From assembly GCA_009845905.1 (NCBI GenBank), contig VXYS01000010.1:94321-158320 (forward strand): a stretch of 64,000 nt of DNA. Reading direction: 5' to 3'. How positions within the stretch are numbered: position 1 is the stretch's first letter; each line of letters starts with the position of its first letter. Positions 5,057 through 31,934 of the stretch are shown here, one piece after another. Both the position numbers and the translations under genes were made by a program. Source of the stretch: Gammaproteobacteria bacterium (GTDB taxonomy: Bacteria > Pseudomonadota > Gammaproteobacteria > Steroidobacterales > Foliamicaceae). The notes below the pieces were generated by a model. It made no database searches. It was not told the DNA's origin and was given only the letters and a program-made list of their open reading frames with translations.

Positions 5057-5196
5057 GCGCAATCCTCCCTGAGCGCATTGTAAGCCAAGCCAGCGTAGGG
5101 TCATCCCGGCAGTTTGAGGCTAAACTTGCCCATTCCGCCGGGCCGGGAGCATACGGCCGGCGGCATTTGACGGGAGTTTCCAAGGGAGTCTTCACA

Positions 5197-6444
5197 GTGG
5201 CGCAAACCAAGAGCACGAGCGCGACCGCGGCGCAACCCAGCTACATTCCGACACGCGAGGAACTGGTACTTGAGGCACGCAAGCTGGTGCCGGTACTCCG
5301 CGAGCGCGCCCAGGCTACCGACGAGCTTCGTACGCTGCCCGACGAAACCGTGGCCGATCTGAAGGCGGCCGGAATCCACAAGATTTTCACGCCCCGGCGC
5401 TACGGCGGATTCGAGATGGACTGGGGCGCGCACGTGGACGTGTCCCGCGAACTCGGTCGCGGCTGCGGTTCCACGTCATGGGTGTCGTCCGTGGTGATGT
5501 CCCACACCTGGATACTCGGGCGCTTTCCGGTGCGTGCGCAGGAGGAATTCTGGCCGGACAGGCCCGATGCGATCATCGCGACCGCCTTTGCCGGCGGCGG
5601 AACGATGGAGCCGGTGGACGGCGGCTTCGTGCTGAACGGCCAGTGGCGTTTCGCCAGCGGCGTGGACCACGCGAACTGCGCCGTCGTGGGGGGGCGCTAC
5701 AACATCAAGAATCGCACTTCCGAGGGCAGGTTGAGATACCGCATGGCGCACCTGTTGCCGGAAGATTATGAGATCGTCGACACCTGGCATGCGGAGGGGC
5801 TGAAGGGCACCGGAAGCAAGGACATACTGGTCAAGGACCGTTTCGTGCCGGAGTACCGGACCGTGCGATCGGAGGAGCTGGCCGGCAAGGAACCCCCGGG
5901 AGCGAAGCTGCACGAGAGCTATATCTATCGCACCGAACTCGGACAGCTTTTCTATACGCTGCTGTGCGGGCCGATGCTGGGGGCTACCCGCGGCGGCCTG
6001 GAACACTACCTGGAACAGACCCGGGAACGCACGGGACAGATGTTCGGCGAGAGCATCGTCGAGCAGGTCCCCGTGCAGATCCGGGTCGCGGAATCCTTCG
6101 AGGAACTGCGGGTAGCCGACCTGATCACCGACAACCTGATGCAGTTCCTGCACGAGGCCGGCAGTTCGGGCAAGCGGATTCGCGGTATCGATCGCCTGCG
6201 CATCCGCCGGGAACCGGCCATGGCGGCCAAGCTCTGCCTGAGCGCCATCACCCGGGTGGCCAACATGATGGGCGTGACCGGGCAGACCGGCAACAACGCC
6301 GTCCAGCGCCATTACCGCGACATGCGCACGATCTCGACCCATGGCGGCCTCAACTGGGACACCGGAATGATGCCCACGGGCAAGCTGCTGCTGGGCGTGC
6401 CCACCGGCGACCCGCTCACCGACGTGGATATCGAAAAGCCCTGA
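5197..6444 (+). CDS. acyl-CoA-dehydrogenase-fold flavin-dependent monooxygenase, oxygenase component (HsaA/HpaB-C2-like, group D)
   Basis: By-eye similarity to M. tuberculosis HsaA: RAQATDELRTLPDETV, CGSTSWVSS, AQEEFWPD, GLKGTGSKDILVKDRFVP. The GTG at 5197 (RBS AAGGGA) is preferred over the TTG at 5167. Confidence 0.8.
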   Translation: MAQTKSTSATAAQPSYIPTREELVLEARKLVPVLRERAQATDELRTLPDETVADLKAAGIHKIFTPRRYGGFEMDWGAHVDVSRELGRGCGSTSWVSSVVMSHTWILGRFPVRAQEEFWPDRPDAIIATAFAGGGTMEPVDGGFVLNGQWRFASGVDHANCAVVGGRYNIKNRTSEGRLRYRMAHLLPEDYEIVDTWHAEGLKGTGSKDILVKDRFVPEYRTVRSEELAGKEPPGAKLHESYIYRTELGQLFYTLLCGPMLGATRGGLEHYLEQTRERTGQMFGESIVEQVPVQIRVAESFEELRVADLITDNLMQFLHEAGSSGKRIRGIDRLRIRREPAMAAKLCLSAITRVANMMGVTGQTGNNAVQRHYRDMRTISTHGGLNWDTGMMPTGKLLLGVPTGDPLTDVDIEKP

Positions 6445-9215: not shown

Positions 9216-12200
9216 ATGAAAGACCGGATCATCGATTTATCGCTTGAACGTCGGCGGTCCACGCTGCTGGCGATGATCGGCATCGTGATTTTCGGGATCG
9301 TCGCGCGCGTTTCGATCCCGGTGGAGAGCGAACCCCGCATCGAAATCCCGTTCTACGTGATCACGGTCGTTCACGAGGGCATCTCTCCGGAAGATGCCAG
9401 GCGGCTGCTGATCCTGCCGCTGGAAATCGAACTCAAGGCCGTGGAAGGCGTCCGGGAAATCACCGGCACGGGCGCCGAGAACATGGCCATGGTGGGGGTG
9501 GAGTTCCAGACGGGAATCGACCTCGACGTAGCGCTGAGCGACGTGCGCGAGGCCGTGAACCGGGCCAAGCCCGAGTTCCCGTCCACGACGGAGGAGCCGA
9601 TTGTCGAGGAAACCGCGACCACCGACTACCCCGTGCTGCAGATCAACCTGGTAGGCCGGAACACCCCGGAGGAAACGCTCTACGCCGCAGCGCGCCGCCT
9701 TCGCGACCGGATCGAAATGGTAGGCCAGGTGCAGCTGGCGGCACTGCAGGGACACCGCGAGGAGTTCATGGAAATCCTCATCCGGCCGGAGCAGCTCGCG
9801 ACGTACCAGATGTCCGTGGAGGAGCTGTACGGGGCGCTCACGCGCAACAACCGGCTGATTGCGGCGGGCGCGATGGATTCCGCCCAGGGGAGCGTCTCGG
9901 TAAAGGTGCCCAGCGTCATCGAATCCACCGACGACCTGCTCGACATTCCGGTGCGCATCGAAGGCGACACGGTCGTGACCCTGAGTGACGTGGCTTCGGT
10001 GAGGCGCACGTTCAAGGACCGGGCCAGCTACTCCCATGCCAACGGCGAGCGTTCCATATCTGTGTTCGTCTACCGGCGCTCCGGCGCAAACAGCATCGAA
10101 ACGGCCACCGCGGTCCGTGAAGTGGCGGACGGTTTCCGCGATCGACTGCCCGTGGGCGTCAACATGTTCTATTCCCAGGACACGTCGCAGTTCGCCGCCA
10201 AGCAGATCGTCGAGCTGCAGGGGAACATCGTGACCGCGCTGGTGCTGGTCATGCTCGTGATATTCCCGGCCATGGGCCTGAGGAGCAGCCTGCTGGTGGC
10301 CGGCGCCATCCCGGTCTCCTTCCTTTTCGCGCTGATCTTCCTGTGGCTGTTCGGCCACTCGTTCAACTTCATGGTCATGTTCGGCATGCTGCTGGGGCTG
10401 GGCATGCTGATCGACGGCGCCATCGTGGTCACCGAGGATGCCGAACGGCGAATCACGGAAGGCGAAACCGAACTCGAGGCATACGGGGCGGCCGCCAAGC
10501 GAATGTTCCTGCCCGTGCTGGCCTCCACCGCGACCACTCTGGCGGCCTTCGTGCCGCTGATGTTCTGGCCCGGCGTGGCCGGCGCCTTCATGGGGTACCT
10601 TCCCATTACCCTGCTCTGGGTGCTGATCGGAGCGCTGCTCTATGCGTTGATATTCGCTCCGGTCCTAGGCACGACGTTCCGGCGCCGCAGCCGCGGGATT
10701 GCCGCGCCGCAGGCGGGCGCGGACAGCATGTGGGAACTGGACTGGGCGCGGCTGGGGCGTTTCGCGAGCGGTTACGGCCGCCTGCTGTCGCTGGCCGTGC
10801 GCCGTCCCCTGGCCACCGTCACCATCGTGATCGCGCTGGTCCTGGGCATATTCACGGTGCATGGCTCGCGCGATCTGGGCGTGCTTTTCTTCAACGAGAA
10901 CGACCCCACCTACGCCCAGGTGTTCGTGCGCGCACGGGGCAACCTGGACGTGGAGGAAGCCTACCGGCTGGTTGCCGAGGTGGAGGCAGCGGTCCTGGAG
11001 GTCCCGGGCATCAAGAACCTGAACATGTTCACCACGACCGGCGCGGGCCAGGCCCAGGGGCAGCGGATGCAGTACCAGGGCGGTTCGAGCGCAGACCGCA
11101 TCGGCGCCATGTTCGTCGAGATGGTCGAGAGCAGCCAGCGCGACACGACCGGCATGGAAGTCCTGGAGGAAGTCCGCCGGCGCACGCAGAGGTTCGGCGG
11201 CGTGATCATCGAGGTGCGGCCGTTCGAGAGCCAGATCACCGCCGGCAAACCGATCGCGCTGCAGTTCTCTTCCAACGAGCGTGAGCGTCTTGTTCCCGTG
11301 GTCGAAAGGGTGCGCGAGTACATCGTCAACGAGGTCGAGGGACTGAGGGACATCGAGGACACGCTTCCCGTGCCCGGCATCGAATGGCAGCTGGAAGTGG
11401 ACAGGGCCGTGGCGGGCCTCTACGGCGCCGATGTCTCGACCGTGGGGCTGGCCACGCAACTGGTGACGAACGGCGCCAAGCTGGGCGAGTACCGTCCCGA
11501 CGACGCGGACGACGCGCTGGACATCAGGATCCGCTACCCGACCGAAGACCGCGGCGTCAACGAACTCGACGACCTGAGGATCGTCACCCGCAACGGGCCG
11601 GTCCCATTGTCGAATTTCGTCACGCGGCGCGCGACGCCCCGGCTGGACACTATCCAGCGGGCCGACCAGGAAGACATCCACATGATCCGGGCCGGCGTGG
11701 CGCCCGGCGTGCTGCCCGACGCCAAGATCCGCGAGATTCAATCCTGGCTGGACAGCCAGACCTTCGATTCGGAGGTGGACGTCCGCTTCCGCGGCACGAC
11801 CGAGGAGCAGGAGGAGTCGATCGACTTTCTTTCCAAGGCCTTTTCCTTTGCATTGCTGCTCATGTTCGCGTTGCTGGTCACGCAGTTCAACAACATTTAC
11901 CAGAGCTTCCTGATCATGCTGGCGATCGTGCTGTCCACGGCCGGGGTGTTTCTGGGGCTTGTCATCACCAACCAGCCGTTCAGCGCGATATTGAGCGGGG
12001 TGGGCGTGGTGTCGCTGGCGGGCATTGTCGTGAACAACAACATTGTGCTGATCGACACCTACAACGTGGGGCGCAGGGAATTCCCCGACCGGGACATCGC
12101 CGAACTCATCGTGCTGACCGGATTGCAGCGGTTGCGGCCGGTGCTGCTGACCACCGTCACCACCGTGATCGGACTGCTGCCCCTGGCCAGCCACCAATCG

Positions 12201-12455
12201 GTGGATTTCATCAACCGCAAGTGGGTATCGGGAGGCGAGCTTTCGGGTTACTGGGTGCCTCTAGCCCAGGCCGTGGTGTCCGGACTGACCTTCGCCACGA
12301 TCCTGACGCTGATCCTGACGCCGGCGCTGCTGGTGCTGCCGAGCCGGCTCAAGGGGATGTTCTCGGGTGTTCTGACCGGACTGCGCAACAGGGCGCCGAA
12401 GCCGGTGCGGCTTCGCGGCGGGGACAGTTACGCGAACCGCTCTCCCGGCGTATGA
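9216..12455 (+). CDS. RND efflux transporter permease (AcrB/ACR_tran family)
   Basis: About 1080 aa with two 6-TM bundles and large periplasmic loops. AcrB-like N-terminus (IDLSLERRRSTLLAMIGIVIFGI). ATG at 9216; an alternative GTG lies at 9198. Confidence 0.9.
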   Translation: MKDRIIDLSLERRRSTLLAMIGIVIFGIVARVSIPVESEPRIEIPFYVITVVHEGISPEDARRLLILPLEIELKAVEGVREITGTGAENMAMVGVEFQTGIDLDVALSDVREAVNRAKPEFPSTTEEPIVEETATTDYPVLQINLVGRNTPEETLYAAARRLRDRIEMVGQVQLAALQGHREEFMEILIRPEQLATYQMSVEELYGALTRNNRLIAAGAMDSAQGSVSVKVPSVIESTDDLLDIPVRIEGDTVVTLSDVASVRRTFKDRASYSHANGERSISVFVYRRSGANSIETATAVREVADGFRDRLPVGVNMFYSQDTSQFAAKQIVELQGNIVTALVLVMLVIFPAMGLRSSLLVAGAIPVSFLFALIFLWLFGHSFNFMVMFGMLLGLGMLIDGAIVVTEDAERRITEGETELEAYGAAAKRMFLPVLASTATTLAAFVPLMFWPGVAGAFMGYLPITLLWVLIGALLYALIFAPVLGTTFRRRSRGIAAPQAGADSMWELDWARLGRFASGYGRLLSLAVRRPLATVTIVIALVLGIFTVHGSRDLGVLFFNENDPTYAQVFVRARGNLDVEEAYRLVAEVEAAVLEVPGIKNLNMFTTTGAGQAQGQRMQYQGGSSADRIGAMFVEMVESSQRDTTGMEVLEEVRRRTQRFGGVIIEVRPFESQITAGKPIALQFSSNERERLVPVVERVREYIVNEVEGLRDIEDTLPVPGIEWQLEVDRAVAGLYGADVSTVGLATQLVTNGAKLGEYRPDDADDALDIRIRYPTEDRGVNELDDLRIVTRNGPVPLSNFVTRRATPRLDTIQRADQEDIHMIRAGVAPGVLPDAKIREIQSWLDSQTFDSEVDVRFRGTTEEQEESIDFLSKAFSFALLLMFALLVTQFNNIYQSFLIMLAIVLSTAGVFLGLVITNQPFSAILSGVGVVSLAGIVVNNNIVLIDTYNVGRREFPDRDIAELIVLTGLQRLRPVLLTTVTTVIGLLPLASHQSVDFINRKWVSGGELSGYWVPLAQAVVSGLTFATILTLILTPALLVLPSRLKGMFSGVLTGLRNRAPKPVRLRGGDSYANRSPGV

Positions 12456-12500
12456 TTGACCCGTGTCTTATGGGCAACTGATTCGACTGCGGGGGTAGTT

Positions 12501-14498
12501 GTGAGATTAGCCGAAGAGTTGGCGCTGGTTCTTCTGAACGAAGACAGCGGCTATTTTGAACCCGTCGGCGCCTGGAACCTGTCCTGCGTGATCGCGGGCT
12601 CGGTGCTCGCGGACCTGTCGCTCGAATTCCGTATCGACACCGATACGGAGACGCTGACGCTTCTGGATGCGAAGGAAACAGGCGACCCCTTGCTGGATCC
12701 GGTGCTGGAAGAAATCGCCTCGGCGCCCCCTCCGGTGCACAACGCCCAGTACTGGATCGAGAAGACCGCGCAACGATCGGACGACGCGATGGACATCATT
12801 CTCGACCGGCTGGTCGAGAAGAACATTCTGGATCACGACTCGGGCGGGTTCTGGTCGCTCAGCCGCCAGGTATCGCGCACCGGAACGTACTCCGCGGACG
12901 ACGGATCGACGAAGCTGCAGGTCAAGACGCGAGTTCTTCGCGCAATCCTGGACGAAGAGATTCCCGATCCCCGGGATGTGATCCTCATCAGCCTGATTGC
13001 CGCATGCGACGCCCTGCCGCTGCTGCTCACCGAAGAAGAGTACGAGGAATCCCGCGAGCGCATCGATCTGCTCTGCAGGATGGACCTGGTGGGACGCGCC
13101 ATCGGCGCGGCTGTCAGGGAGAGTCAGGGACGCCCGGTACAGCAGCCCGTAGGGCGCACACGGCCGATTCCGGTCGCCAACCTGCTGAAGCTGATTCCGA
13201 ATCGAAACCTGAGGCGGGGCAATCTTTCAAGGATCCTGACGGATCTGTACAGGGAATACGGTCCGGTCTTCAGGATCAAGAAGCCCTTCTCGGAAAAGGG
13301 CGTTGTCGTGCTTGCCGGACCGGACACCAACGCATGGATCAACCGCAACGGCCGGACCTATTTCCGCACGCGAGACCACATGGCCGACTTCGAGCAACTG
13401 TACGGTGCGTCGCGGACCTTGCCCGGCATGGACGGCACAGAGCATTACCGCATGAGGAAGTCCCTGCGAGCCGGTTATTCCCGCGCGACGCTGGAGGCCA
13501 GGCTGGACGAAGTATATAAATTCTGCCGTGCGTCACTGGAGAAATGGGTCCCGGGCAAACCGATGCCAGGCGCCGCCGCATGCCAGGAGTTGATGAGCGT
13601 TCAGGTGTCGCAGCTCATGGTGGGCGTGGACGCGTCGGACCATATCGACGATCTCCTCAGCTACGAACACCGCTCGCTGGTCACGCATGTGCAGAAAGCC
13701 TTGCCGAAATTCATGATGCAGACGCCAGGCATGGCCAGGAAGAGGAAGCGCATTTTCGAGATGCTCAACCGGGTATTGAATGCGCACACGCCGGCGCAGC
13801 GCAAAGGCAAACCCAAGGACCTGGTCGATCATATTCTGAGCCTGCACGCCAGCGATCCGCAGTATTTCCCGGAGACCGATCTGAGCTTCATGCTGGTCGC
13901 GGGTTTCATCGCCAGCATTTACCTCGGCAGCGGGCTGAGCTTTGCCGTGTACGGCATGGCCAGCCATCCCGAAATCTACCGCCGGGTTCAGAAGGAAGCC
14001 GAGGCGCTGTTCGCCAACGGCGACCCGGGCAAGGACGATTTCACGAGATCCACAATCGACGTCGCCCACCGGGTGTTCCTGGAGTCCCAGCGACTGTACC
14101 CGGTCATTCCGATGCAGCTTCGCACCACGATGAATCACTGCGTGGTGCAGGGCTACAACATACCGAAGGACACGCGCGTGGTGTTCGCGCACACCGCCGC
14201 GCACCACCTGGAAGAGACTTTTCCCGATCCCACCAGATTCGATATCGACCGGTACGCGCCGCCCCGGGATGAGCACAAGCGCGCGGGAGCCTACGTGCCG
14301 TTCGGGCTGGGGACGCATCATTGCCTGGGGTCGAAATGGGTGGAACTGCAAATGACGATCAACCTGCTCCTCATCGCCTACTATTTCGACATCAGCGTCG
14401 TTCCGTCGGACTACGAGATGAGATTCAATCCGTTTCCCACCAGCGCCCCGAACAGCAAGTTTCGATTTACCATTGACAAGAGGCGTCACGACTTCTGA
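12501..14498 (+). CDS. GOLPH3/GPP34-like domain fused to cytochrome P450
   Basis: The N-terminal 225 aa or so match the bacterial GPP34 pattern (LAEELALVLLNEDSG, GDPLLDPVLEEIA, LVEKNILD, PDPRDVILISLIAACDAL). The C-terminal part is a P450 with ExxR (ESQRLYP), PDPTRFDIDRY and heme loop FGLGTHHCLGSKW. GTG at 12501 is preferred; the ORF is open from 12456. Confidence 0.85.
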   Translation: MRLAEELALVLLNEDSGYFEPVGAWNLSCVIAGSVLADLSLEFRIDTDTETLTLLDAKETGDPLLDPVLEEIASAPPPVHNAQYWIEKTAQRSDDAMDIILDRLVEKNILDHDSGGFWSLSRQVSRTGTYSADDGSTKLQVKTRVLRAILDEEIPDPRDVILISLIAACDALPLLLTEEEYEESRERIDLLCRMDLVGRAIGAAVRESQGRPVQQPVGRTRPIPVANLLKLIPNRNLRRGNLSRILTDLYREYGPVFRIKKPFSEKGVVVLAGPDTNAWINRNGRTYFRTRDHMADFEQLYGASRTLPGMDGTEHYRMRKSLRAGYSRATLEARLDEVYKFCRASLEKWVPGKPMPGAAACQELMSVQVSQLMVGVDASDHIDDLLSYEHRSLVTHVQKALPKFMMQTPGMARKRKRIFEMLNRVLNAHTPAQRKGKPKDLVDHILSLHASDPQYFPETDLSFMLVAGFIASIYLGSGLSFAVYGMASHPEIYRRVQKEAEALFANGDPGKDDFTRSTIDVAHRVFLESQRLYPVIPMQLRTTMNHCVVQGYNIPKDTRVVFAHTAAHHLEETFPDPTRFDIDRYAPPRDEHKRAGAYVPFGLGTHHCLGSKWVELQMTINLLLIAYYFDISVVPSDYEMRFNPFPTSAPNSKFRFTIDKRRHDF

Positions 14499-14532
14499 CC
14501 CGCGGGCCACGGTTTACACGGAATCTGCATAA

Positions 14533-15618
14533 ATGAAAATCAGGGAATCCCTGCGCAAACCATTGTGGGCCGGGCTGGTCCTTGCAGTTTGCGCCGTATG
14601 GCTGCTGTCCGGAATCCTGGGAGGCGACGACGACGATGGGCAGGCGTCGGTCGCTTCGCGCGCGGAAGCGCGGGACGAAATCGTCGTGCGGGTACGAACC
14701 AGCCGTGCGTCGGAGCAATCCAGGACGCTCACGTTGCGCGGCCGCACGCGAACCCGGCACGCGGTGACGGTGCGCGCCGAAACGTCCGGCCGCGTGGACG
14801 ACCGGCCGATCGATATCGGCGCGCAGGTGTCGGCAGGCGATGTGCTTTGCCAGGTGGAGGTCAATGATCGCGAACTGCGCGTTCGCGAGGCCGGCGACGC
14901 GGTCGAGCTGGCGACGCTGGAGTACGAAGGCATGAAGACCCTGCGCGAACGGGGCCTTCAGCAGGAGATCGCGGTGGCCCGTGCCAAGGCCCAGTTGAGT
15001 TCCGCGCGCCGCCAGCTCCTGGCCAGCGAACTGGAACTTGACAATACCGCCGTGGTTGCTCCGTTCGCCGGGTTCGTGGAAGAAACTCATGCGGAGGTGG
15101 GCGACTACCTGCAGATGGGCAGCCCCTGCGCCACCATTCTCGATCTCGATCCGATCTACGTGGAGGCCGCCGTCACGGAACAGCAGTATCCGCAACTGGA
15201 CCTGGGCGCCGAGGTGCGGATCACGATGGCCACCGGCAATACGGCCCGCGGATCGCTTACCTTTATCGGCAAGCAGTCGGCGGACCAGTCACGCACCTAT
15301 CCCATCGAAGTGACGGTCCCAAACCCGGACTTTTCGATTTCCTCGGGGTTGAGCGCGGAGGTCGAAGTCTCGCTGCATGCCCAGCCGGCGCACAAGGTGG
15401 GAATGTCCTACGTGGTTCTGGACGCCAACGGAGAAATGGGCGTGCGGGCGGTTGACGACGATCAGCGGGTTCTCTTCTACCCGATCGACGTGGTCCGGGA
15501 AGACCCGGACGGGCTGTGGGTCTCCGGATTGCCGGCCGAAGTCACGTTGATCACGGTGGGCCAGGAATTCGTCAGTCCCGGCCAGCAGGTCAGAGTCCAG
15601 CGCGACACCGCAACATAG
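14533..15618 (+). CDS. RND efflux periplasmic adaptor (membrane fusion protein, HlyD family)
   Basis: 361 aa. N-terminal TM anchor, lipoyl/coiled-coil pattern (AETSGRV, QVSAGDVLCQVE, NTAVVAPFAGFV). Confidence 0.85.
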   Translation: MKIRESLRKPLWAGLVLAVCAVWLLSGILGGDDDDGQASVASRAEARDEIVVRVRTSRASEQSRTLTLRGRTRTRHAVTVRAETSGRVDDRPIDIGAQVSAGDVLCQVEVNDRELRVREAGDAVELATLEYEGMKTLRERGLQQEIAVARAKAQLSSARRQLLASELELDNTAVVAPFAGFVEETHAEVGDYLQMGSPCATILDLDPIYVEAAVTEQQYPQLDLGAEVRITMATGNTARGSLTFIGKQSADQSRTYPIEVTVPNPDFSISSGLSAEVEVSLHAQPAHKVGMSYVVLDANGEMGVRAVDDDQRVLFYPIDVVREDPDGLWVSGLPAEVTLITVGQEFVSPGQQVRVQRDTAT

Positions 15619-15639
15619 CCCTCCCGCCGCCGCGCGGCT

Positions 15640-16671
15640 TCACGCCGGTTTGCGCGCCAGAAAACAGTAAAGCGGCGTGAATATCCCGGTCTTGCCGCCT
15701 GCAACATAAGCGTCCGCGGTCCGGTCCATGAGCCGGATCACGGTGTTGGAACCCTTCGGGAAGAGTCCGAAACCCTCCGTGAGCTTCACCATGCCGATCA
15801 TTGCCTTTCGACCCGCAGGCGTCCTGCGCAGGAGATTCCGGAATGTGCCGGTGTTTCCCTCCATCGGCTGATACCAGGGGGTGTATGGATCTTCCTGCAT
15901 CGCCCTGTCCATCCCCTCGATCACTTCGAACCCGACCGCCTCCAGTGCCTGATCGACCTCCGCGAAGGTTGCGATCTCATTCAATGCGATCCCGTGCATC
16001 AGTTCGCGCCTGATGGCCCGGTGGCGGGAGCTGTTCGAGTCGAACTCTTTCGTCATGCACATTTCCTGCCCCCAGAAAAACGCCCCGGGCTTCAACACGC
16101 GGAAGATCTCGGCAAAAGCGCCCTTCTTGTCCGGCGCGTGGCAGGTGGACTCGATCGCGTAGCCCGCGTCGAATGAGTCGGGCTCGAACCTGCTCATGTC
16201 CATGAAGCTGCAGTGGGCGTAGTCGGCCATGTGATCAAGACCTGCCTCAACGTTCCTTCGCTTCGCCTTTTCCAGTTGCTGCTCGTTGTTGTTGAGGCAG
16301 ACCACGCGGGCGCCGGACTCGCGCGCGACCCGGCGCATTGGCCCCCCGACCCCGCAGCCCACGTCGATGACCGTCATTCCCTCCGTCAGCCGGAGCTTGC
16401 CGATCATCAGCCGCTGATGCCGAAGGATCGAGTCGTCAAGGCTTTCGCCCGGCCTCAAGGGGGCGAAGTGCAGCGATTCGTTCCACCCGAACTGCATGAA
16501 CTCGCTGCACAGCGAGTAGTAGTCGTTGACCGTCTCGGCGTGGTCATATTTGCGGTCGTTGGAGCCCCCTTCTTCCCGCCGGTCGAGCCAGCCTTCAAAC
16601 GATTCGACGCGATTGGCAACGGACCAGCCGCGGTAGGCGCTCTTCAGCGACGTGGACAATTTCGCCAGCAT
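15640..16671 (-). CDS. sterol C-24 methyltransferase-like SAM-dependent methyltransferase (Erg6/SMT family)
   Basis: 343 aa, alignable by eye to yeast Erg6 over the full length: YYSLCSEFMQFGWNESLHFAP, VIDVGCGVGGP, LNNNEQQLEKAK, YAIESTCHAP, VLKPGAFF, PWYQP, and the C-terminal GGKTGIFTPLYCFLARKP (sterol-MT C-terminal domain). Confidence 0.85.
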   Translation of the reverse strand: MLAKLSTSLKSAYRGWSVANRVESFEGWLDRREEGGSNDRKYDHAETVNDYYSLCSEFMQFGWNESLHFAPLRPGESLDDSILRHQRLMIGKLRLTEGMTVIDVGCGVGGPMRRVARESGARVVCLNNNEQQLEKAKRRNVEAGLDHMADYAHCSFMDMSRFEPDSFDAGYAIESTCHAPDKKGAFAEIFRVLKPGAFFWGQEMCMTKEFDSNSSRHRAIRRELMHGIALNEIATFAEVDQALEAVGFEVIEGMDRAMQEDPYTPWYQPMEGNTGTFRNLLRRTPAGRKAMIGMVKLTEGFGLFPKGSNTVIRLMDRTADAYVAGGKTGIFTPLYCFLARKPA

Positions 16672-16716
16672 GGCGTGCGGGATTCCCTGGGGGTGGTGTT
16701 ATGCCGCCGAGAGGGA

Positions 16717-17796
16717 TCAGGCGCCGAACTTGGCGCCGCGCGCGGCATGAATCGGGGCAGGCTTGAGGCTGCGCACACGCGCGCGGCTCTCTTCGGCATC
16801 CGGATAGAACTGCTCGCAGTATTTCCGGTAGGTCATGATCTCGCCGTCCGAGCGGCTCAGGATCGGCAGCGGCTGGTAGCGCTTGTTTTCCCAGATGGCG
16901 ACGTCCTGGCGCACATCGTGCTTGACCCGAGATACGAAGAACCGGGTCAGCCAGTTCGCGGGAAGACAGCGAAGCAGTAATGTCGCCAGCCATTTCTGCC
17001 CGGATTCCCAGCGCCGGATCTGCAGGGCGACCACGAGCTTGATGTAGGTGTCGTCAATGGGCGTGGACAGGATCCACTGGCGCAGTTTCAATCCGCTGAC
17101 GCGCTCATGAAACTCGACGAACGAATAGCCGAAACCCCAGACGTGAGTCGTTGCAACAACGTCGGTCAGAACCGGCACGCCAAGCAGCTTCACGTTGCGC
17201 CGGAAAACGAAGCTGTTGCGCAGGCAGGCGCCGTCCACCTGCACGTCTCCGACCTGCTTGACCGCCGCGTAGCCATGCACGTAGCGGAAATGGGCGATGT
17301 CCACGGAGTTCTCCGAGGTTTCCTGCGGGTGGCCGCGCAACTGCACGCTTCCGTAATGGAGGCGGTGCCATTCCCTGTCCGGCCACTCGGGGAGCTCCCA
17401 CTGCGGACCGCGCCCCACCGGGCTCCACCAGGCGAGAATGAGGCCGTTGAGCTCGCGTGTCTCGTAAACATTGAGCCGCGCGGTTCTGGGCGGCGGGGCA
17501 TCCGGCGTGGCCACGCACCTGCCGGTGGCATCATATTCGAAGCCGTGGAAGGGGCAGACCAGCCGCCCGTTTCTGACGCAGCCGCCGCCGTCCGGCCCCA
17601 GGTGCCCGCCCAGATGCGGGCAGTAGGCCTCGGACACGCAAATCTCTCCGTCGTTGTCGCGCCAGGTCACGATCTGCCGGCCCATCCATTCTTTCTGGAG
17701 AAGACCGCCTTTGGGCAGGTTCCTGGCGATCTCCACGAGATACCAGCCTTCCGGGTACCTGCCCGGCGGGTAATACCGCTTGTTCGCCAGTTTCAT
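16717..17796 (-). CDS. Rieske [2Fe-2S] non-heme iron oxygenase, KshA/Neverland-like
   Basis: 359 aa. Rieske motif CPHLGGH...CPFHGF. Mononuclear iron motif ENSVDIAHFRYVH. C-terminal DVAIWENKRY...DGEIMTYRKYCEQFY resembles the KshA/Neverland tail. Confidence 0.85.
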   Translation of the reverse strand: MKLANKRYYPPGRYPEGWYLVEIARNLPKGGLLQKEWMGRQIVTWRDNDGEICVSEAYCPHLGGHLGPDGGGCVRNGRLVCPFHGFEYDATGRCVATPDAPPPRTARLNVYETRELNGLILAWWSPVGRGPQWELPEWPDREWHRLHYGSVQLRGHPQETSENSVDIAHFRYVHGYAAVKQVGDVQVDGACLRNSFVFRRNVKLLGVPVLTDVVATTHVWGFGYSFVEFHERVSGLKLRQWILSTPIDDTYIKLVVALQIRRWESGQKWLATLLLRCLPANWLTRFFVSRVKHDVRQDVAIWENKRYQPLPILSRSDGEIMTYRKYCEQFYPDAEESRARVRSLKPAPIHAARGAKFGA

Positions 17797-18000: not shown

Positions 18001-20472
18001 TCAGAAGCCGTAGGTAAGCGTTACGCCGACCTGGCGACCGCGGGGCAGCGTGATGGCGAAGCCGCGCGGTGTGCTGGACGGATTGCCCAGTTCGCCGGGG
18101 ACATAGCCGGGGATGCTGGCGTGGGGGCGCAAACCGCCGGAGCGCCGGTCGATGTAGCGCAGGATGTCGAGCGGAGTGTCGTCATCGAACAGGTTCTTGC
18201 CCCACAGGGCGATTTCCAGGTTGTCGCGGCGAACACCCAATCGCAAGCCAACCCGGGTGAGCGCACCGGTTTCGATCAGATTGTGGATTTGCGAAAAGCG
18301 CGAGCCTTCGTAAACAACGTCACCGGTGAAAAACCAGGCAAAGCCACTCGCCATGACGTCGCCGCTGTAGCGCGCCACCAGGGAGGCCATGTGCTCGGGT
18401 ATCCGCGGCACTCTCTTGCCGGCCACCGAGCCAAGGCGGTTCAGGTCGCTGCGCGAGCCGTTGGCGCCGTTAAGGTCCGCCTGATCGATATTGACGTATT
18501 CCTGAATCTCCGCGTTGGTCCAGGCATAGCCGACATTCACGACCAGTTTGTCGGTCAGCGCCGTCTGAAGATCGACCTCCAGGCCGGCAACGCGGGTCTC
18601 GCCCACATTGTCGAGCAGCGACGCGCTGCCCCCGGTGGGCGTCTCGATCACGGTCGTGAACTGCTGGTCGGTCACTTCAGTCAGATAGGCGGCCACATTG
18701 AGCGCCGTCCTGCCGTCCATCAGCACCGTCTTGTAGCCCGCTTCGTAGTTCCAGGCCACTTCTTCCTCCACCGCGCGGAAGGATTCATCGGGGTTGCCGT
18801 CCACGCCGATCGGTACCTGGGTGTTGAAGTCGCCGGGCTTGGAACCCTTGGCGATATTCAGATACAGATTCGCGTTCTCGTTCGCCTTGTAGCTCAGCGT
18901 GAATCTTGGATTGACGGAATCGAACTCGGATTCGAACCGGCCGCGAAGCGGCGTCCCGCCGGGTTCATAAACGGAAAGCGTTATTTCATCGGTGGCGGCG
19001 CGCGCCTCCGCCGTGGCGGTCCACTTGTCGCTCAGATCCCATTCGAGGGCAGCGAAAACGGCCGTGTTGGTGACGTCGTCATAGTCGATGGTGGAGTTGG
19101 GCGACACTGCCCTGGCCACCAGGCCCCAGCCGTACCGGTCGCTCAGCGCCGCGGCCACGTCGGTCATCACCTTGTCGTCGCGGCTTTCGTGTTGCTCGCC
19201 ACGATAGTAGTACAGGCCGATGGTGGCCCGGAATTCGCGGTCCGACGGAGACGAAAGCCGGAGCTCCTGGGAGAAGTCGGACTGGTCGTTGCCAAGTATG
19301 CGATTGAACTGGCCGCAGAACCCCGCGGCGCAAGCGAACCCTCTGCCCAGGATAGGACGCAGGAAAGGCGGCAGGCCGTTCACGAAGGCAACTCCGAAAT
19401 CGTAGCCGCCGTAGGTTCCGTCAAGGCCCGTTTCGGACTCGTCGTCGATCAGGCCGGTGAGGCTGGACACTCGCCAATCGTTGGCCAGGTCGTAGTGCAT
19501 GGTCAGCGAAGCGGTAATCCGATCCATGCGGTTGCCCGCGCCGCTGTCGGAATCAAGCTCCGCGGTATTCAGGGCCACCGGCAGATTGCGCAGGGCTTCG
19601 CCAATGTAGTACTCGCGCGCCCTCGGGCCGGTCACGCCGGTAATGTTCGCGCTTCCGGAAGACTCGCCGCGAAAGCAGCAGTTATTGTGCTCGCGGGCTT
19701 GCAGGGCAAGGGCCGGGTGGCTGTCGTCCACCTTCTGGTAGGACAGCGCCAACGTGGCCTCGAACCGCTCGTTGGGCGTGAAGTACAGCTTGCCGGATAT
19801 GTTGGTGGTCTTTTGCTCGTTGACTTCATCCCCGGTGAGCGTGTTGACGTGCTCGCCGCCGTACTGGTCGTAGCCCGCCCCAATCCGGAACCAGGCGGTA
19901 TCCTCAACCAGAGGGCCGCTGATCCAGCCCTGCACCTCATAGGACTCGTGTTCGCCGCCGCCCACCGTGATTTCGCCTTCCAGCTCTTCCGAAGGCCGCC
20001 GGGTGACGTAGTTGATGGCGCCGGCGTAGGTGCCCCGCCCGTATTGCGCGGATTGCGGGCCCTTGATGATTTCGACGCGCTCGATGTTGGCGAAATCGAC
20101 GGACGAAACCTTGCCGCCCACATAGATGCCGTCCACAAAGGTGGACACCGCCTTCACGTTGGCAATGCCATTGATGATCGTGGTTTGTCCGCGCATGGCC
20201 GGCCGGTCCTGGTTGGAGCTGCGCCCGAAACCGGACTGGAACGAGAAGCCCGGGGTGTAGAGCGCGATTTCGTTAACGGATCTGATGCCCAGTTCGCGGA
20301 TGTCGTTTGCGGTGAAGGCGCTGACCGCGATCGGGATGTCCTGCACGGACTCCTCGCGCTTGCGGGCGGTCACGATGATTTCCTCGAGCATGGCTTCCTG
20401 CGTAACCGCAGGACGCGGGGCGACGATCACGCCCGCAGCCAGGACGCAAATTACGGCAAGTCTGAATCTCAT
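18001..20472 (-). CDS. TonB-dependent receptor
   Basis: 823 aa. Signal peptide, plug motif EEIIVTARKREESVQDIPIAVSA, C-terminal beta-barrel ending TLTYGF. RBS GGGAGGA. Confidence 0.9.
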   Translation of the reverse strand: MRFRLAVICVLAAGVIVAPRPAVTQEAMLEEIIVTARKREESVQDIPIAVSAFTANDIRELGIRSVNEIALYTPGFSFQSGFGRSSNQDRPAMRGQTTIINGIANVKAVSTFVDGIYVGGKVSSVDFANIERVEIIKGPQSAQYGRGTYAGAINYVTRRPSEELEGEITVGGGEHESYEVQGWISGPLVEDTAWFRIGAGYDQYGGEHVNTLTGDEVNEQKTTNISGKLYFTPNERFEATLALSYQKVDDSHPALALQAREHNNCCFRGESSGSANITGVTGPRAREYYIGEALRNLPVALNTAELDSDSGAGNRMDRITASLTMHYDLANDWRVSSLTGLIDDESETGLDGTYGGYDFGVAFVNGLPPFLRPILGRGFACAAGFCGQFNRILGNDQSDFSQELRLSSPSDREFRATIGLYYYRGEQHESRDDKVMTDVAAALSDRYGWGLVARAVSPNSTIDYDDVTNTAVFAALEWDLSDKWTATAEARAATDEITLSVYEPGGTPLRGRFESEFDSVNPRFTLSYKANENANLYLNIAKGSKPGDFNTQVPIGVDGNPDESFRAVEEEVAWNYEAGYKTVLMDGRTALNVAAYLTEVTDQQFTTVIETPTGGSASLLDNVGETRVAGLEVDLQTALTDKLVVNVGYAWTNAEIQEYVNIDQADLNGANGSRSDLNRLGSVAGKRVPRIPEHMASLVARYSGDVMASGFAWFFTGDVVYEGSRFSQIHNLIETGALTRVGLRLGVRRDNLEIALWGKNLFDDDTPLDILRYIDRRSGGLRPHASIPGYVPGELGNPSSTPRGFAITLPRGRQVGVTLTYGF

Positions 20473-20678: not shown

Positions 20679-21731
20679 TCAGTCCGGGGGTTCGCCGGGA
20701 ATGCGGGCGGTGATGCAGGCGCCGCTTCCGGGAGGGCTGGCCACTTCCACCTCGCCGCCGTGCGCCTCGGCGATCAGGCGGCACAGGTAGAGGCCAAGGC
20801 CATGGCGCCCGGTTCCCGCGCCGCGGGACGGGTCCGCCCTGTAGAAGGCGCCGGTAACCCGCTCCAGGTGCTCGGGTTCGATTCCGGGACCGTGGTCCTG
20901 CACGCGAATGACTGCCGCGCCGTCCTCCATGCGCAGGCTGAGCTCAACCGGCATCCCGTCCCGGGGGTTGTAGCGCAAGGCATTCTCCACCAGGTTGCGG
21001 ACCAGCATTCTCAGGCGGGCGGCGTTCACGCTCAGGTGTGCCGGAGACGGCGGCACGCTCAGCGACACGCGGTGGCGGTCGTTGGGGAAATCGCCGCGCA
21101 GGACTTCGGCCATCAACTTGTTCAGATTGACCCGCGAGCGTGACATCCGCCCGCCCTGCGTGTTCAGGCGTTCGCCCTCCAGCAATTCCGTGATCATGCG
21201 TTCCATGCTGGACAGGTCGTACTCCAGGTGCGAGCGCACGTCCTTGTCGTGGATGAACTCCAGCGCCAGCCGGGCGCGGGTCAGCGGCGTGCGCAACTCG
21301 TGGCTCATGGCCAGCAGCAACTCGCGCTGGCCGTCGAGCATCCCCTTCACCTGGTCCGCCATGCGGTTGATGCGTTGCGTCAGCCTGCCGAGCTCGTCCT
21401 GACGGCGGATCGGGATCCGGTATTCGAGTTGCCCTTCTCCGATCCGGCGCGTGCCCTGCCGGATGTCTTCCAATGGATAGAAAAGCCGCCGCACAGCCAG
21501 GTAGCAGCCGACGAAAACCACCGCTATCGTGGGGTAACCAAGGACACGCACGACGGTCATATTCTCCGGATTCCCCTGGGGCGGGAAAATCGAGAAGAGG
21601 GCCGCCGTGGCCGCCGTAATGACGAAAAAACTTGCGAAGAAGATCAGGACCAGGCGAACGGGAAGTGAGCGCCAGGCGTTCACCGGCTTGCGCGCCAGCC
21701 ATTTCAGGGCGCGGAGGAATCGGTTATTCAT
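20679..21731 (-). CDS. sensor histidine kinase (HAMP-HisKA-HATPase)
   Basis: 350 aa. Two N-terminal TM segments, a HAMP-like linker, H-box MSHELRTPLT, G-boxes DHGPGI and GLGLYLCRLIAEAHGG. Overlaps the response-regulator gene by 4 nt. Confidence 0.9.
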   Translation of the reverse strand: MNNRFLRALKWLARKPVNAWRSLPVRLVLIFFASFFVITAATAALFSIFPPQGNPENMTVVRVLGYPTIAVVFVGCYLAVRRLFYPLEDIRQGTRRIGEGQLEYRIPIRRQDELGRLTQRINRMADQVKGMLDGQRELLLAMSHELRTPLTRARLALEFIHDKDVRSHLEYDLSSMERMITELLEGERLNTQGGRMSRSRVNLNKLMAEVLRGDFPNDRHRVSLSVPPSPAHLSVNAARLRMLVRNLVENALRYNPRDGMPVELSLRMEDGAAVIRVQDHGPGIEPEHLERVTGAFYRADPSRGAGTGRHGLGLYLCRLIAEAHGGEVEVASPPGSGACITARIPGEPPD

Positions 21732-22477
21732 AGAACGATCGTGGTGTTTGAGGGCGGGACGTCATCGCTCCCGGGATCGCGACTGCTTTCGCCCTGTCCT
21801 TTCAGGAAGACGTAGCCCGCGCCGCGTATCGTGCGGATGAAGCGGGGATTGGATGGATCATCGTCCAGTTTCTGGCGCAGCCGGCTGATATTGATGTCCA
21901 CCGAGCGCGAAAATATGTTCGGTTCGATGCCGCGCAGTTCCGAGAGTATTTCGTCGCGGGTGTAGACGCGTCCGGGCTCGCCGGCAAGCAGTTGCAGCAG
22001 GTTGAACTCCATCGCCGTGAGATCGAGCAGGTCGTCGTTCAGGTGCGCCTCGCGGCGATCGAAGTCAAGCCGCAGGGGACCGTGTTCCACCACCCCCGAA
22101 ATGGTGGACGAACGCTGGACGCGCCGCAGGATGGTCTGGATCCGGGCGACCAGTTCGCGCGGCTCGAACGGCTTGGGCACGTAATCGTCGGCCCCGACCT
22201 CCAGACCCACCACACGGTCGGTCACGTCGCCGCGCGCGGTGAGCATGATGATCGGCACGCTGCTGGTCTTGCGGATCTCGCGGCACAACTCGAAGCCGTC
22301 GCGCCCCGGCAGCATGACGTCGAGAATCACCAGGTCCGGTTCGAAGGCAGCCATCTTCCTGAGCCCGGTATCGCCTTCCAGCGCGGACTCGAGCTCGAGA
22401 TCGAAACGACTGAAATAGGCCCGCAGAAGCATGGCGAGCTTTGCGTCGTCGTCGATCAGGAAGATGCGGGATGGCAT
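21728..22477 (-). CDS. OmpR/PhoB-family response regulator
   Basis: 249 aa. Receiver domain (IFLIDDD, DLVILDVMLPG, KPF) plus winged-helix output domain (FNLLQLLAGEPGRVYTRDEIL, RFIRTIRGAGYVF). Confidence 0.9.
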   Translation of the reverse strand: MPSRIFLIDDDAKLAMLLRAYFSRFDLELESALEGDTGLRKMAAFEPDLVILDVMLPGRDGFELCREIRKTSSVPIIMLTARGDVTDRVVGLEVGADDYVPKPFEPRELVARIQTILRRVQRSSTISGVVEHGPLRLDFDRREAHLNDDLLDLTAMEFNLLQLLAGEPGRVYTRDEILSELRGIEPNIFSRSVDINISRLRQKLDDDPSNPRFIRTIRGAGYVFLKGQGESSRDPGSDDVPPSNTTIVL

Positions 22478-28270: not shown

Positions 28271-28368
28271 GGATAGTTCCCGCAGTACATCAGAGCGCGC
28301 ATTGTATCCCTCGGGAAAGCGACCGATGCGCTCCGAAACGCATCGGCGCGCGCATACAATTCCGGCGG

Positions 28369-29538: not shown

Positions 29539-29569
29539 ACTAATTGCTCTGTAATCCAGGAGCACAATC

Positions 29570-30715: not shown

Positions 30716-30718
30716 CCC

Positions 30719-31933: not shown

Positions 31934-31934
31934 G

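Follow-up and report, generated by a model that had tools for sequence, protein, structure and literature searches.

Sterol methyltransferases (SMTs) and sterol gene clusters have been described from sponge symbionts, in which OSC, CYP51 and ERG24 are the neighbours of the SMT gene (Brown et al. 2023, PMC10070321; Kelly et al. 2022, PMC9531527). Fusions of GPP34 and cytochrome P450 (GPP34_L) are reported to be exclusive to sponge symbionts and expressed in situ, and were proposed to be secreted effectors that bind PI4P (Microbiome 2025, PMC11706023). Sterols and methyltransferases are nowhere mentioned in that paper. The sterol transport system BstABC of Methylococcus capsulatus provides an example of an RND-superfamily inner-membrane transporter encoded beside sterol-modifying genes, and HpnN is a related exporter of hopanoids.

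The gammaproteobacterial locus analysed here has a transporter of this superfamily in the same kind of setting, and shares the Erg6/SMT family with its Sterol_MT_C domain, the habitat and the horizontal spread with the published SMTs. Its SMT, in contrast, is accompanied by a GPP34-P450 fusion, a KshA-type Rieske oxygenase and a pump. PMC10070321 and PMC9531527 do not mention Rieske or KshA-type genes, P450 fusions or RND pumps near SMTs, and a literature search found no paper on this gene composition. The initial annotation had called the system undescribed, which holds for the five-gene composition but not for the fusion, already reported in PMC11706023. The module ties together two published findings that have so far been treated apart. 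The reading we favour, with moderate confidence, is that these genes are the gammaproteobacterial form of a module which has spread horizontally, is confined to symbionts of sponges (and of at least one coral) and tailors and traffics a sterol or a sterol-like triterpenoid.

Organization of the five-gene locus

An ORF check of the window (the whole 64-kb stretch of DNA that was analysed) reproduced all five genes with the coordinates and spacing annotated initially, and Pfam and TIGR profile matches to every ORF confirmed the assigned identities. On the plus strand, an AcrB-type (HAE-1-like) RND permease of 1079 aa (9216..12455; ACR_tran 503 bits) and an RND periplasmic adaptor, or membrane-fusion protein, of 361 aa (14533..15618; TIGR01730 RND_mfp 147.7 bits versus a cutoff of 94.9; HlyD_D23 and HlyD_3) enclose the gene of the GPP34-P450 fusion (GPP34_L, 665 aa, 12501..14498), in which GPP34 (116 bits) and p450 (147 bits) domains lie in a single ORF with an alternative TTG start at 12456. 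On the minus strand, the gene of a KshA-type Rieske non-haem iron oxygenase (359 aa, 16717..17796; Rieske 70 bits, KshA_C 90 bits) is located 45 bp upstream of that of the module-type sterol-methyltransferase-like protein (343 aa, 15640..16671; Methyltransf_11 67 bits; Sterol_MT_C 64.7 bits versus a cutoff of 21.7). The latter converges on the adaptor gene across a gap of 21 bp (15619-15639). Independent gene calls in public assemblies covering the same DNA concur on the five ORFs. A contig of a gammaproteobacterial MAG (GCA_009838795.1) also matches the window. Profile searches detected no OSC, SQMO, CYP51, ERG24 or SdmA/B in the whole 64 kb, and neither a ferredoxin or reductase partner nor an outer-membrane factor (OMF) gene was found in the window.

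Conservation of the module across phyla

The neighbourhood of the SMT-like gene was surveyed in 80 species-level genomes from at least 12 phyla, 65 of them with full 10-kb flanks. Within 10 kb of the SMT-like gene, a homolog of the GPP34-P450 fusion was present in 56 of the 65 full loci, a KshA-type Rieske homolog in 43 and an RND-superfamily transporter in 57, and all three surrounded the SMT in 38. The family labels of these neighbours were confirmed with Pfam, and the catalytic motifs of the module enzymes are all intact. The conserved core consists of the SMT, the GPP34-P450 fusion, the KshA-type Rieske protein and any RND-superfamily pump. The initial annotation had considered that the genes might never be co-localised in related genomes; the survey decisively showed the opposite, with enzymes and pump together across phyla and often in one operon. 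Its inclusion of the particular RND/MFP pair in the set did not hold, as this AcrB-type pair recurs only in the window's own lineage (loci L004-L010) and other lineages use other pumps.

The loci are compact, and their gene order and orientation are shuffled between lineages. In 40 of 81 loci, an enzyme gene and a pump gene sit next to each other in an operonic arrangement (RND and SMT in 25), and in L015 and L024 the AcrB stop codon, an SD-like motif and the SMT start follow each other within about 20 nt. Mirror-tree correlations reach r = 0.49-0.61 (Mantel p <= 0.0005). Chance or purely historical adjacency, in which the genes would have no functional coupling, is consistent with the exact five-gene order being confined to close relatives (L004-L008). 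However, these functional classes are found together again in at least 12 phyla, where orders and pump families differ, and they frequently form operons. The linkage was replicated in metagenome contigs and in the reverse direction, where a partner was present at 8 of 8 sampled fusion loci. By our own estimate, a few-copy family would lie within 10 kb of a given gene in about 3% of cases in a genome of about 4 Mb, versus the 86% (56/65) observed. We consider coincidence extremely improbable.

The module has spread horizontally among sponge-dwelling bacteria of many phyla. In a metagenome search of 241 million records, only 118 stretches encoded a relative, and among the matches listed these came from sponge metagenomes wherever the source was attributable. 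Homologs of the fusion form 889 clusters at 51-100% identity to the window protein. An LkcE-like flavoprotein is an occasional extra member of the module, and TetR regulators are found at some loci.

The sterol-methyltransferase-like protein

The window methyltransferase shares 39% identity with yeast Erg6 over 321 residues (E=2e-76; reference sequence NP_013706.1, confirmed by exact look-up), which bears out the whole-length alignment previously made by eye. Of the 25 "functional SMT" residues, 20 are retained, among them the essential H90, D125, G129, P133 and E195. The sterol-binding Region I, which reads F-M-Q-F-G-W-N-E-S-L-H-F, is altered: the window enzyme has M81 and L89 where the cluster-flanking canonical SMT, a paralog with 45% identity, has Y/F81 and F89. 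Both changes (Y81M and F89L) are fixed throughout the module-type SMT clade, and so are changes in Region IV. Judged by its sequence, the window methyltransferase is a member of the Erg6/SMT family but a paralog distinct from the characterised bacterial SMTs.

According to a 2025 preprint, all functional SMTs share F89. IMG 2682229270, which was in the assay set of Brown et al. 2023 (PMC10070321), is the SMT2 of locus L067 and the one member of the module-type clade known to have been assayed; it is 35.63% identical to Erg6 and carries L89. Desmosterol and 24-methylenecholesterol were probably not converted by this protein. Indirectly, this speaks against activity of the module-type SMT on standard substrates. 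The earlier Erg6/SMT assignment stands for the family, with the Sterol_MT_C domain and the Erg6 alignment, but the C-24 methylation attached to it is at most a candidate activity, given the altered Region I and the probably inactive relative.

The GPP34-P450 fusion

The Cys ligand, the ExxR motif and the meander motif show no variation among the 61 fusion proteins. The I-helix reads A-A/G-x-x-A-S, with the Thr replaced by Ala in 60 of 61, which is different from the CYP51 signature. CYP51 enzymes gave the best PDB sequence matches of the P450 domain and are among its best structural neighbours, but this similarity is weak (only 77 bits, in the C-terminal half) and is equalled by that to fatty-acid and retinoid P450s. 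In the AF2 model of the fusion (pLDDT 86.6, pTM 0.79), the structural neighbours are lipid-acting P450s.

Under the published proposal, the fusion would be a eukaryote-like effector, secreted to bind PI4P of the host and to stop phagosomes from maturing, with the SMT, Rieske and pump genes as unrelated passengers. The GPP34 fold is indeed real, with a profile match to GOLPH3 of 40.5 bits besides the Pfam match, and the window fusion has the architecture, the restriction to sponge symbionts and the family expression in situ reported in PMC11706023. However, when the PI4P-pocket residues of GOLPH3 (Wood et al. 2009) were located in the 61 fusion proteins, the R90 position was A/V/I with no basic residue, the R171 position was E/D in 55 of 61 and the R174 position was I/V/L/S, so that the PI4P pocket is not conserved. 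The first conserved helix begins 1-10 residues past the Met, therefore there is no space for a Sec or Tat signal, and the fusion has no TM anchor. A haem enzyme that depends on cytoplasmic redox partners is also improbable as a secreted effector, and the fusion gene, which lies within a module of lipid enzymes and a pump, is strongly linked to these in both search directions. We regard the effector reading as very unlikely.

The KshA-type Rieske oxygenase

The best solved relatives of the Rieske protein are KshA (E=9e-29 to 2e-26), followed by SxtT/SxtDIOX. M. tuberculosis KshA aligns over the entire protein with E=2e-26 versus 1.5e-11 for DdmC; the protein groups with KshA, as assigned initially, and not with the aromatic-acid demethylases. 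With 45 bits, the match to the SdmA model stays far below its cutoff of 600. The protein belongs to the same Rieske and KshA_C fold family as KshA with the same metal-binding motifs (CxH..CxxH and DxxHxxxxH, in 50 of 50 family members), but with E values of about 1e-26 to 1e-29 the two are only distantly related. Among its homologs, one carries a fused SCP-2 sterol-transfer domain and a second a fused membrane domain. Genes for a KshB reductase, KstD or other steps of 9,10-seco degradation are absent from the vicinity. Since the Rieske protein travels with the methyltransferase and the pump, a role in tailoring rather than in ring-opening catabolism is suggested.

The associated pumps

The best solved relatives of the window permease are MdtB, AdeB, MexB and AcrB, and the pump is a generic HAE-1-type RND without a substrate signature. 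Orthologs with 80-98% identity adjoin the module in L004-L010, and the remaining lineages have another AcrB type (24-26% identity) or MMPL/SSD-type pumps. The module pump is of the AcrB+MFP(+OMF) type in Gammaproteobacteria and of the MMPL/sterol-sensing-domain type elsewhere, including Chloroflexota, Alphaproteobacteria and Binatia. OMF genes lie alongside the module in 20 other loci. The nearest relatives of the MMPL partners are Patched, MmpL, HpnN and NPC1. The Methylococcus sterol transporter BstA is likewise of the MMPL/HpnN type (PMC10942540), and BstA and HpnN share their Pfam family with the MMPL/SSD-type pumps of the module. The parallel drawn initially between the window pump and the Methylococcus transporter is not sustained, because the window's AcrB-type permease with its adaptor is a member of another RND family. 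No homolog of BstB or BstC was detected.

The pumps bear on whether the module serves detoxification, by which symbionts in sterol- and terpenoid-rich sponge tissue would oxidise, modify and expel intruding lipids of host or neighbours for protection rather than make a membrane lipid for themselves. The combination of oxidation enzymes with an efflux pump, the multidrug-like AcrB-type pumps and OMFs in Gram-negative hosts, the TetR regulators, and the habitat restriction and horizontal spread of the module all accord with it, and so does the lack of OSC within 10 kb at most module loci. On the other hand, an olefin C-methyltransferase of the SMT family is atypical as a conjugation step, and the MMPL/SSD pumps of many phyla resemble the dedicated lipid exporters HpnN and BstA, not drug pumps. 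A protective function is also at odds with the Nitrospirales loci described below, and we hold it to be unlikely, though with appreciable probability.

Connection to sterol biosynthesis and proposed function

Nitrospirales have the module directly attached to a cluster of the published type: it abuts a complete de novo set, OSC-CYP51-ERG24-SdmA-SdmB-SMT1, which has its own canonical SMT. In L067, L072, L091 and L092 the module adjoins SQMO::OSC, CYP51, ERG24, SdmA, SdmB and a canonical SMT, and in L067 and L072 a genuine CYP51 is present beside the fusion. Because the Nitrospirales module extends a full de novo cluster, the lack of OSC in the window says little for the exogenous substrate previously suggested as possible.

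Botryococcus triterpene methyltransferases are SMT-like enzymes that methylate non-sterol triterpenes. By analogy, the substrate could be a non-sterol isoprenoid (squalene, a hopanoid or another triterpenoid), methylated by the SMT-like enzyme and exported by the HpnN-like MMPL pumps. The fixed changes in Region I and Region IV and the probably inactive clade member agree with this, as does the accessory flavoprotein, which is weakly similar to HpnE at its N-terminus and resembles lipid-chain enzymes. However, where a pathway lies nearby it is OSC, CYP51, ERG24, SdmA/B and canonical SMT rather than hopanoid genes, and the module loci showed no operon for a squalene-hopene cyclase. The module is linked to sterols by the full-length Erg6 homology with its retained essential residues, by the closeness of the Rieske protein to KshA among solved structures, by the SCP-2 fusion and by the MMPL partners with their Pfam family in common with BstA. 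We judge a non-sterol substrate to be quite unlikely.

The pairing of an unusual SMT-like enzyme and two oxygenases with a pump makes it probable that the module remodels and moves sterol-like lipids. The substrate would be a membrane sterol, self-made where the core pathway is present and possibly host-derived where it is absent. The P450 and the Rieske enzyme would oxidise it with redox partners supplied in trans. The GPP34 domain, at the place of the eukaryotic P450 membrane anchor and lacking the PI4P pocket, may keep the P450 at the membrane or present the lipid. The SMT paralog may transfer a methyl group from SAM onto a side-chain double bond of a substrate other than desmosterol or 24-methylenecholesterol, and the pump, often co-transcribed with the enzymes, would take the product from the inner membrane toward the outer membrane or the exterior.

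Genes flanking the module

The "steroid-oriented metabolism" initially proposed for the window is weak, since the "HsaA-like" gene scores 285 bits against an HsaA cutoff of 450 and the Rieske genes elsewhere in the window are of the VanA_C type. A TonB-dependent receptor (18001..20472, minus strand; Plug and TonB_dep_Rec_b-barrel) and a two-component system (20679..22477, minus strand; HAMP, HisKA, HATPase_c, Response_reg and Trans_reg_C), composed of a histidine kinase (20679-21731) and an OmpR-type response regulator (21728-22477), had been suggested as further parts of the module. Their recurrence is limited to the window's lineage: the two-component system lies beside the module only in L004-L010, and the TonB receptor, with homologs adjoining the module only in these loci plus one weak 25% match in L049, is a lineage-specific neighbour outside the conserved module.

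A five-gene locus in two convergent units

The locus consists of five closely spaced genes. On the plus strand, an RND permease (9216-12455; ACR_tran, PF00873, 503 bits) is followed by a GPP34-P450 fusion (12501-14498) and an RND periplasmic adaptor (14533-15618; about 148 bits). On the minus strand lie a methyltransferase of 343 residues (15640-16671) and a Rieske oxygenase (16717-17796). Domains of the window ORFs were assigned by Pfam and NCBIfam scans. The fusion is a single ORF in which GPP34 (116 bits) and p450 (147 bits) both exceed the Pfam cutoffs, the methyltransferase carries Methyltransf_11 and Sterol_MT_C (64.7 bits, cutoff 21.7), and the Rieske oxygenase carries Rieske (70 bits) and KshA_C (90 bits). 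In the ORF table, the convergent gap is 21 bp and the gap from the Rieske gene to the methyltransferase gene is 45 bp. By exact sequence, the window is also present on MAG contig VXQV01000006.1 (GCA_009838795.1) and on 'ENGE20' metagenome scaffolds, a data set from the sponge Ircinia ramosa (Engelberts 2020), and the gene calls there are identical. The genes, coordinates and spacing described in the initial annotation were reproduced by the ORF table and the domain scans, and each of the five proteins matched its expected family.

The window pump is a generic HAE-1-type RND, with permease and adaptor present and no OMF found in the 64 kb. When the window was scanned for promoters and terminators, no signal relevant to operon structure rose above the shuffled background. 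Genes for OSC, SQMO, CYP51, ERG24, SdmA/B, MMPL and ferredoxin were also not found in the 64-kb window, consistent with the earlier observation that it encodes no squalene epoxidase or oxidosqualene cyclase.

The neighbourhood recurs across phyla

When one genome per species was scanned, more than 580 relatives of the methyltransferase were obtained, and the best 80 of them, all from MAGs, were analysed. These 80 belong to Gammaproteobacteria (with Pseudomonadales and Arenicellales), Alphaproteobacteria, Dehalococcoidia/SAR202, Nitrospirales, Binatia, Thermodesulfobacteriota, Gemmatimonadetes, Rhodothermales, Dadabacteria, Nitrospinota and Poriferihabitaceae. All ORFs of the loci were clustered and the family labels were confirmed with Pfam. 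Partners were counted in the loci with complete 10-kb flanks (65 among the best 80). Within 10 kb of the SMT gene, a GPP34-P450 fusion was found in 56 of the 65 loci, a KshA_C Rieske protein in 43 and any RND-superfamily transporter in 57, and all three partner classes occurred together in 38/65. The pump was of the AcrB type, usually with MFP and OMF, in 28/65 loci (Gammaproteobacteria), and of the MMPL/sterol-sensing-domain type in 29/65 (other phyla). OMF genes occur with the module in 20 loci other than the window, and an LkcE-like flavoprotein is encoded in 17 of the 80.

Gene order and orientation vary between phyla, and the module genes stay packed. An enzyme gene lies within 150 bp of a pump gene on the same strand in 40 of 81 loci, an operonic coupling of enzymes and pumps. 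When the three enzymes are compared across loci, their pairwise distances are correlated (r = 0.49-0.61, Mantel p ≤ 0.0005). The RND, MFP, TonB receptor, two-component system, MoeA and MFS neighbours of the window recur only in the loci of its own lineage (L004-L010). What recurs across phyla is the set of SMT, fusion, Rieske and pump classes, not the particular RND/MFP pair, TonB receptor and two-component system.

A metagenome scan of 241 million records gave 118 relatives. Wherever the best 80 of these 118 could be attributed (from Table S4 of Brown et al.), they came from sponge metagenomes: Sarcotragus foetidus (LXNI), Petrosia ficiformis (LXNJ), Aplysina aerophoba (JGIcombinedJ30088, Ga0209021), MKWU and similar sets. 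The A. aerophoba scaffold of Brown et al., JGIcombinedJ30088_10000835, was absent among these 80 best loci. In the 34 metagenome loci of at least 15 kb, many on incomplete contigs, the fusion was found 21 times, the Rieske gene 14 times and a pump 15 times.

The neighbourhood was also approached from the fusion. Eight fusion homologs with 51-70% identity were picked regardless of SMTs, and module partners were found within 10 kb in 8/8 loci: an AcrB-type pump in 6, an SMT in 4, a KshA_C Rieske in 4, an LkcE-like flavoprotein in 2 and a decayed squalene/oxidosqualene-cyclase fragment in 1.

Several loci differ in detail. In a close relative (L009:11117-13110, chromosome OY762933.1), GPP34 and P450 are adjacent separate ORFs of 348 and 321 aa, either a natural split or a frameshift. 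In one fusion locus (L164:7804-11992), two divergent GPP34-P450 paralogs stand back to back beside an AcrB/MFP/OMF operon, and neither an SMT nor a Rieske gene lies within 10 kb. Another (L165:10001-13974) is a module variant without SMT: genes for a DUF1295 protein and a KshA_C Rieske come after the fusion, and PhyH and Epimerase/DUF1731 genes lie upstream; the DUF1295 family is also matched by the ERG24 homolog of L072, a Nitrospirales locus. In a third (L170:12065-13249), fragments of AcrB (213 aa) and of a squalene/oxidosqualene cyclase (163 aa) between fusion and SMT suggest gene decay within a module.

The methyltransferase is a distinct paralog of the SMT family

The by-eye alignment of the methyltransferase to yeast Erg6 was borne out by computation. 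With the reference sequence confirmed as NP_013706.1 by exact look-up, the two proteins align end to end with 39% identity over 321 of the 343 residues (E=2e-76). Twenty-five residues are kept in every functional SMT, including Region I, GWGxxFHF (preprint 10.64898/2025.12.19.695621). Of these 25, the window protein has 20; the differences are T78S, G86N, F89L, G147C and L341M. It retains the SAM-binding Region II (DxGxGxxGP) and the yeast-essential H90, D125, G129, P133 and E195, as do 24-25 of 25 clade members. Y81M and F89L do not vary within the module-type clade (L89 in 25/25), and position 249 is Ile, compared with the Gly needed for propylation.

A canonical SMT is present as a second nearby copy in 6 loci. 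It is 42% identical to Erg6, has the Region I sequence Y-E-F-G-W-G-x-S-F-H-F and shares only about 45% identity with the module-type SMT. Judged from its sequence, the window methyltransferase is an SMT-family protein and a distinct paralog.

The module-type SMT (SMT2) of the Nitrospirales locus L067 is 35.632% identical to Erg6, and the table of Brown et al. (PMC10070321) gives 35.63% for IMG gene 2682229270. L067 SMT2 is this gene, and therefore one member of the module-type clade was in their assay set. The protein was probably inactive on desmosterol and 24-methylenecholesterol, since it carries L89, whereas F89 is said to be kept in all functional SMTs (preprint 10.64898/2025.12.19.695621). 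The module context offers a possible reason for the apparent inactivity of one SMT clade when assayed alone on standard substrates.

The Rieske protein is KshA-like

The Rieske [2Fe-2S] and mononuclear-iron motifs are intact in 50/50 homologs of the Rieske protein. The alignment with M. tuberculosis KshA spans residues 11-338 (E=2e-26). KshA is the nearest solved relative, followed by saxitoxin hydroxylases, and aromatic demethylases are far weaker. Together with the KshA_C domain, this supports the original assignment as KshA-like rather than aromatic-demethylase-like. The likeness to KshA lies in the Rieske and KshA_C domains and the shared metal-binding motifs; none of KshB reductase, KstD or Hsa genes adjoins the Rieske gene, and no ferredoxin or reductase was found in the window. 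The SdmA equivalog model scored 45.5 bits against a cutoff of 600, through the N-terminal Rieske part alone.

An exhaustive homolog search gave 498 representative clusters at E ≤ 1e-30, and the annotated names of the relatives are generic only. One representative (P0403) combines Rieske and KshA_C with a C-terminal SCP-2 sterol-transfer domain. In another (P0299; Acidimicrobiia, 88 contigs), Rieske and KshA_C are preceded at the N-terminus by a multi-pass membrane domain. No GPP34-Rieske fusion was found among the loci analysed or 150 Rieske representatives.

The GPP34-P450 fusion and the published effector model

The fusion homologs form 889 clusters, all with both domains, and by sequence the window fusion is a member of the GPP34_L family. 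This family was published in 2025 as 656 monophyletic proteins, exclusive to sponge symbionts and expressed in situ, and was proposed to be a secreted PI4P-binding effector that blocks phagosome maturation (PMC11706023). That paper nowhere mentions sterols or methyltransferases, and flanking genes were analysed only for the short form in Actinobacteriota. L067 (JAAXIB010000027.1, isolate Plut_88904) is labelled 'coral reef' by Brown et al., so the claim of exclusivity to sponge symbionts may be slightly too narrow.

In GOLPH3, the PI4P pocket is formed by W81, R90, R171 and R174 (Wood et al. 2009, PMC2806290). A profile built from 61 fusion N-termini was aligned to human GOLPH3 with 40.5 bits. 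In the 61 fusions, R90 is replaced by A/V/I (0 basic), R171 by E/D in 55/61, and R174 mostly by I/V/L/S/M with no Arg or Lys; at W81 there is V/I, and a conserved Trp lies 3 columns off. The basic PI4P pocket is, as judged from this alignment, not conserved in the fusions. The conserved first helix starts 1-10 residues past the start codon, which leaves no room for a signal peptide, and no TM anchor was found in the fusion. For this fusion, the effector model is disfavoured by the present data. We infer that the GPP34 domain is a membrane or lipid tether.

The P450 half is catalytically intact, as its Cys ligand, ExxR and meander motifs are invariant. The I-helix Thr is replaced by Ala in 60/61 fusions (A-A/G-x-x-A-S-x-Y, residues ~480-490 of the window protein). 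This 'alcohol' threonine is conserved in P450s, and its loss is a hint that oxygen may be activated in an unusual way or that catalysis is assisted by the substrate. The AlphaFold (AF2) model of the fusion is confident (pLDDT 86.6, pTM 0.79) and contains a single flexible linker (residues 212-217). The structures nearest to it are those of lipid-acting P450s with 15-21% identity: CYP505/102, CYP51, CYP184A1, CYP120A1, CYP97C1 and CYP46A1. Similarity to CYP51 is weak, with best matches of 77 bits over residues 413-642 only, in the C-terminal half. The fusion lacks full-length CYP51 orthology and the I-helix signature, and is 21% identical to the CYP51 of L072.

The pumps are of two RND types

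A parallel to the RND-type sterol transport of Methylococcus had been drawn for the window pump. The RND superfamily is indeed shared, but the Methylococcus sterol transporter BstA is MMPL/HpnN-type (PMC10942540), whereas the window pump is ACR_tran (PF00873). The BstA/HpnN-type architecture (MMPL, PF03176) is found in the pumps of 29/65 loci, and these MMPL-type partners are closest to Patched-1, MmpL3/4/5, HpnN and NPC1. A role in detoxification and efflux is one rival reading of the module. Apparent pump::SMT fusions (a 1,404-aa ORF in L082 and a 635-aa ORF in L055, two of the relatives' loci) were rejected as spurious upstream extensions in high-GC DNA.

The module adjoins a de novo sterol cluster in Nitrospirales

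The Nitrospirales loci carry the module attached to a complete de novo sterol cluster. L072 encodes ERG24, a CYP51-like P450, an SQMO::OSC fusion, the canonical SMT, OMP, a KshA_C Rieske, the module SMT and GPP34-P450. L067 additionally encodes a full-length SdmA-like (415 bits) and an SdmB-like protein (303 bits); its KshA_C Rieske, which coexists with the separate SdmA-like gene, reaches no more than 33 bits with the SdmA model. The arrangement is repeated on two A. aerophoba contigs (L091 and L092). Among the best 120 of 2,156 OSC matches, a small part of the OSC list, no contig had the length of a module-bearing chromosome. In the tables of Kelly et al. (PMC9531527), consulted for the presence of a sterol cluster, the MAG of the window has no entry.

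The fusion of squalene monooxygenase and oxidosqualene cyclase is seen at L072:2967-6572 and in the OSC matches (about 1,130-1,170 aa). In symbionts of different taxa, more than 120 clusters of it are mutually 76-91% identical, a very high conservation for a gene that has spread horizontally.

The best-supported reading of the data is a mobile, symbiont-restricted module by which a sterol or sterol-like triterpenoid, either made by the bacterium or taken from the host, is oxidised, methylated and pumped. We infer this substrate class, the order of the reactions, and the direction and purpose of the transport; a non-sterol isoprenoid is the rival substrate, to be weighed with the residues fixed in the module-type SMT on one side and the adjoining sterol cluster on the other. 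The canonical Nitrospira SMT, for which (epi)codisterol is recorded as product (Brown et al. 2023, PMC10070321), is encoded a few genes from the module-type SMT. It is conceivable, though improbable, that the module-type SMT is not a C-24 methyltransferase but the missing enzyme for an unconventional, sponge-restricted side-chain alkylation (e.g. methylation of a delta-25 sterol such as (epi)codisterol), acting with the Rieske protein and GPP34-P450, with the pump delivering the product to the host. In that case, bacteria would be the source of some 'sponge' sterol biomarkers, and GPP34_L would not be a PI4P effector but a domain that handles sterols.

Relation to known systems

The component families are known, two of them from recent papers. 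A literature search found no report of them as one module, in line with the initial annotation, which knew of no described system of this composition. Two lines of work on sponge symbionts have run apart. Bacterial SMTs make steranes less straightforward as the oldest animal biomarkers, and GPP34-P450 'eukaryote-like' proteins were proposed to help symbionts escape digestion (PMC11706023). In hundreds of species across many phyla, their genes are neighbours, together with those for a steroid-type Rieske protein and a lipid pump, which offers a concrete, testable alternative function for GPP34_L. According to a 2025 PNAS paper (PMC12541326), it 'has yet to be established' whether sponges, their symbionts or both harbour the SMTs for unusual sponge-sterol alkylations, and the module provides a defined set of candidate enzymes for the origin of unconventional sponge sterols. 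Besides Methylococcus BstABC, it is also a second independent example of a genetic link between RND-superfamily transporters and sterol enzymes in bacteria.

Other genes of the window

A steroid-oriented metabolism had been suggested for the rest of the window. This context is weak, because the HsaA-like gene (5167-6444) scores 285 bits against the HsaA cutoff of 450 and also matches HpaB-type hydroxylases, and because the remaining two Rieske genes are of the VanA_C type. These two tandem oxygenases (29570-30715 and 30719-31864) match the SdmA model N-terminally alone, with about 92 bits against the cutoff of 600. They lie in a cluster (28255-34890) with a 3-hydroxybenzoate-6-monooxygenase-like flavoprotein, an MFS_2 transporter and an aldehyde dehydrogenase, which looks like a demethylation or aromatic catabolism unit. 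A tandem pair of FGE-sulfatase (SUMF1-like) genes (221 and 234 bits) is located at 35055-36903. At 51304-58144, genes for a SnoaL-like protein and a second TonB-dependent receptor come after a DUF1800/DUF1501 gene pair.
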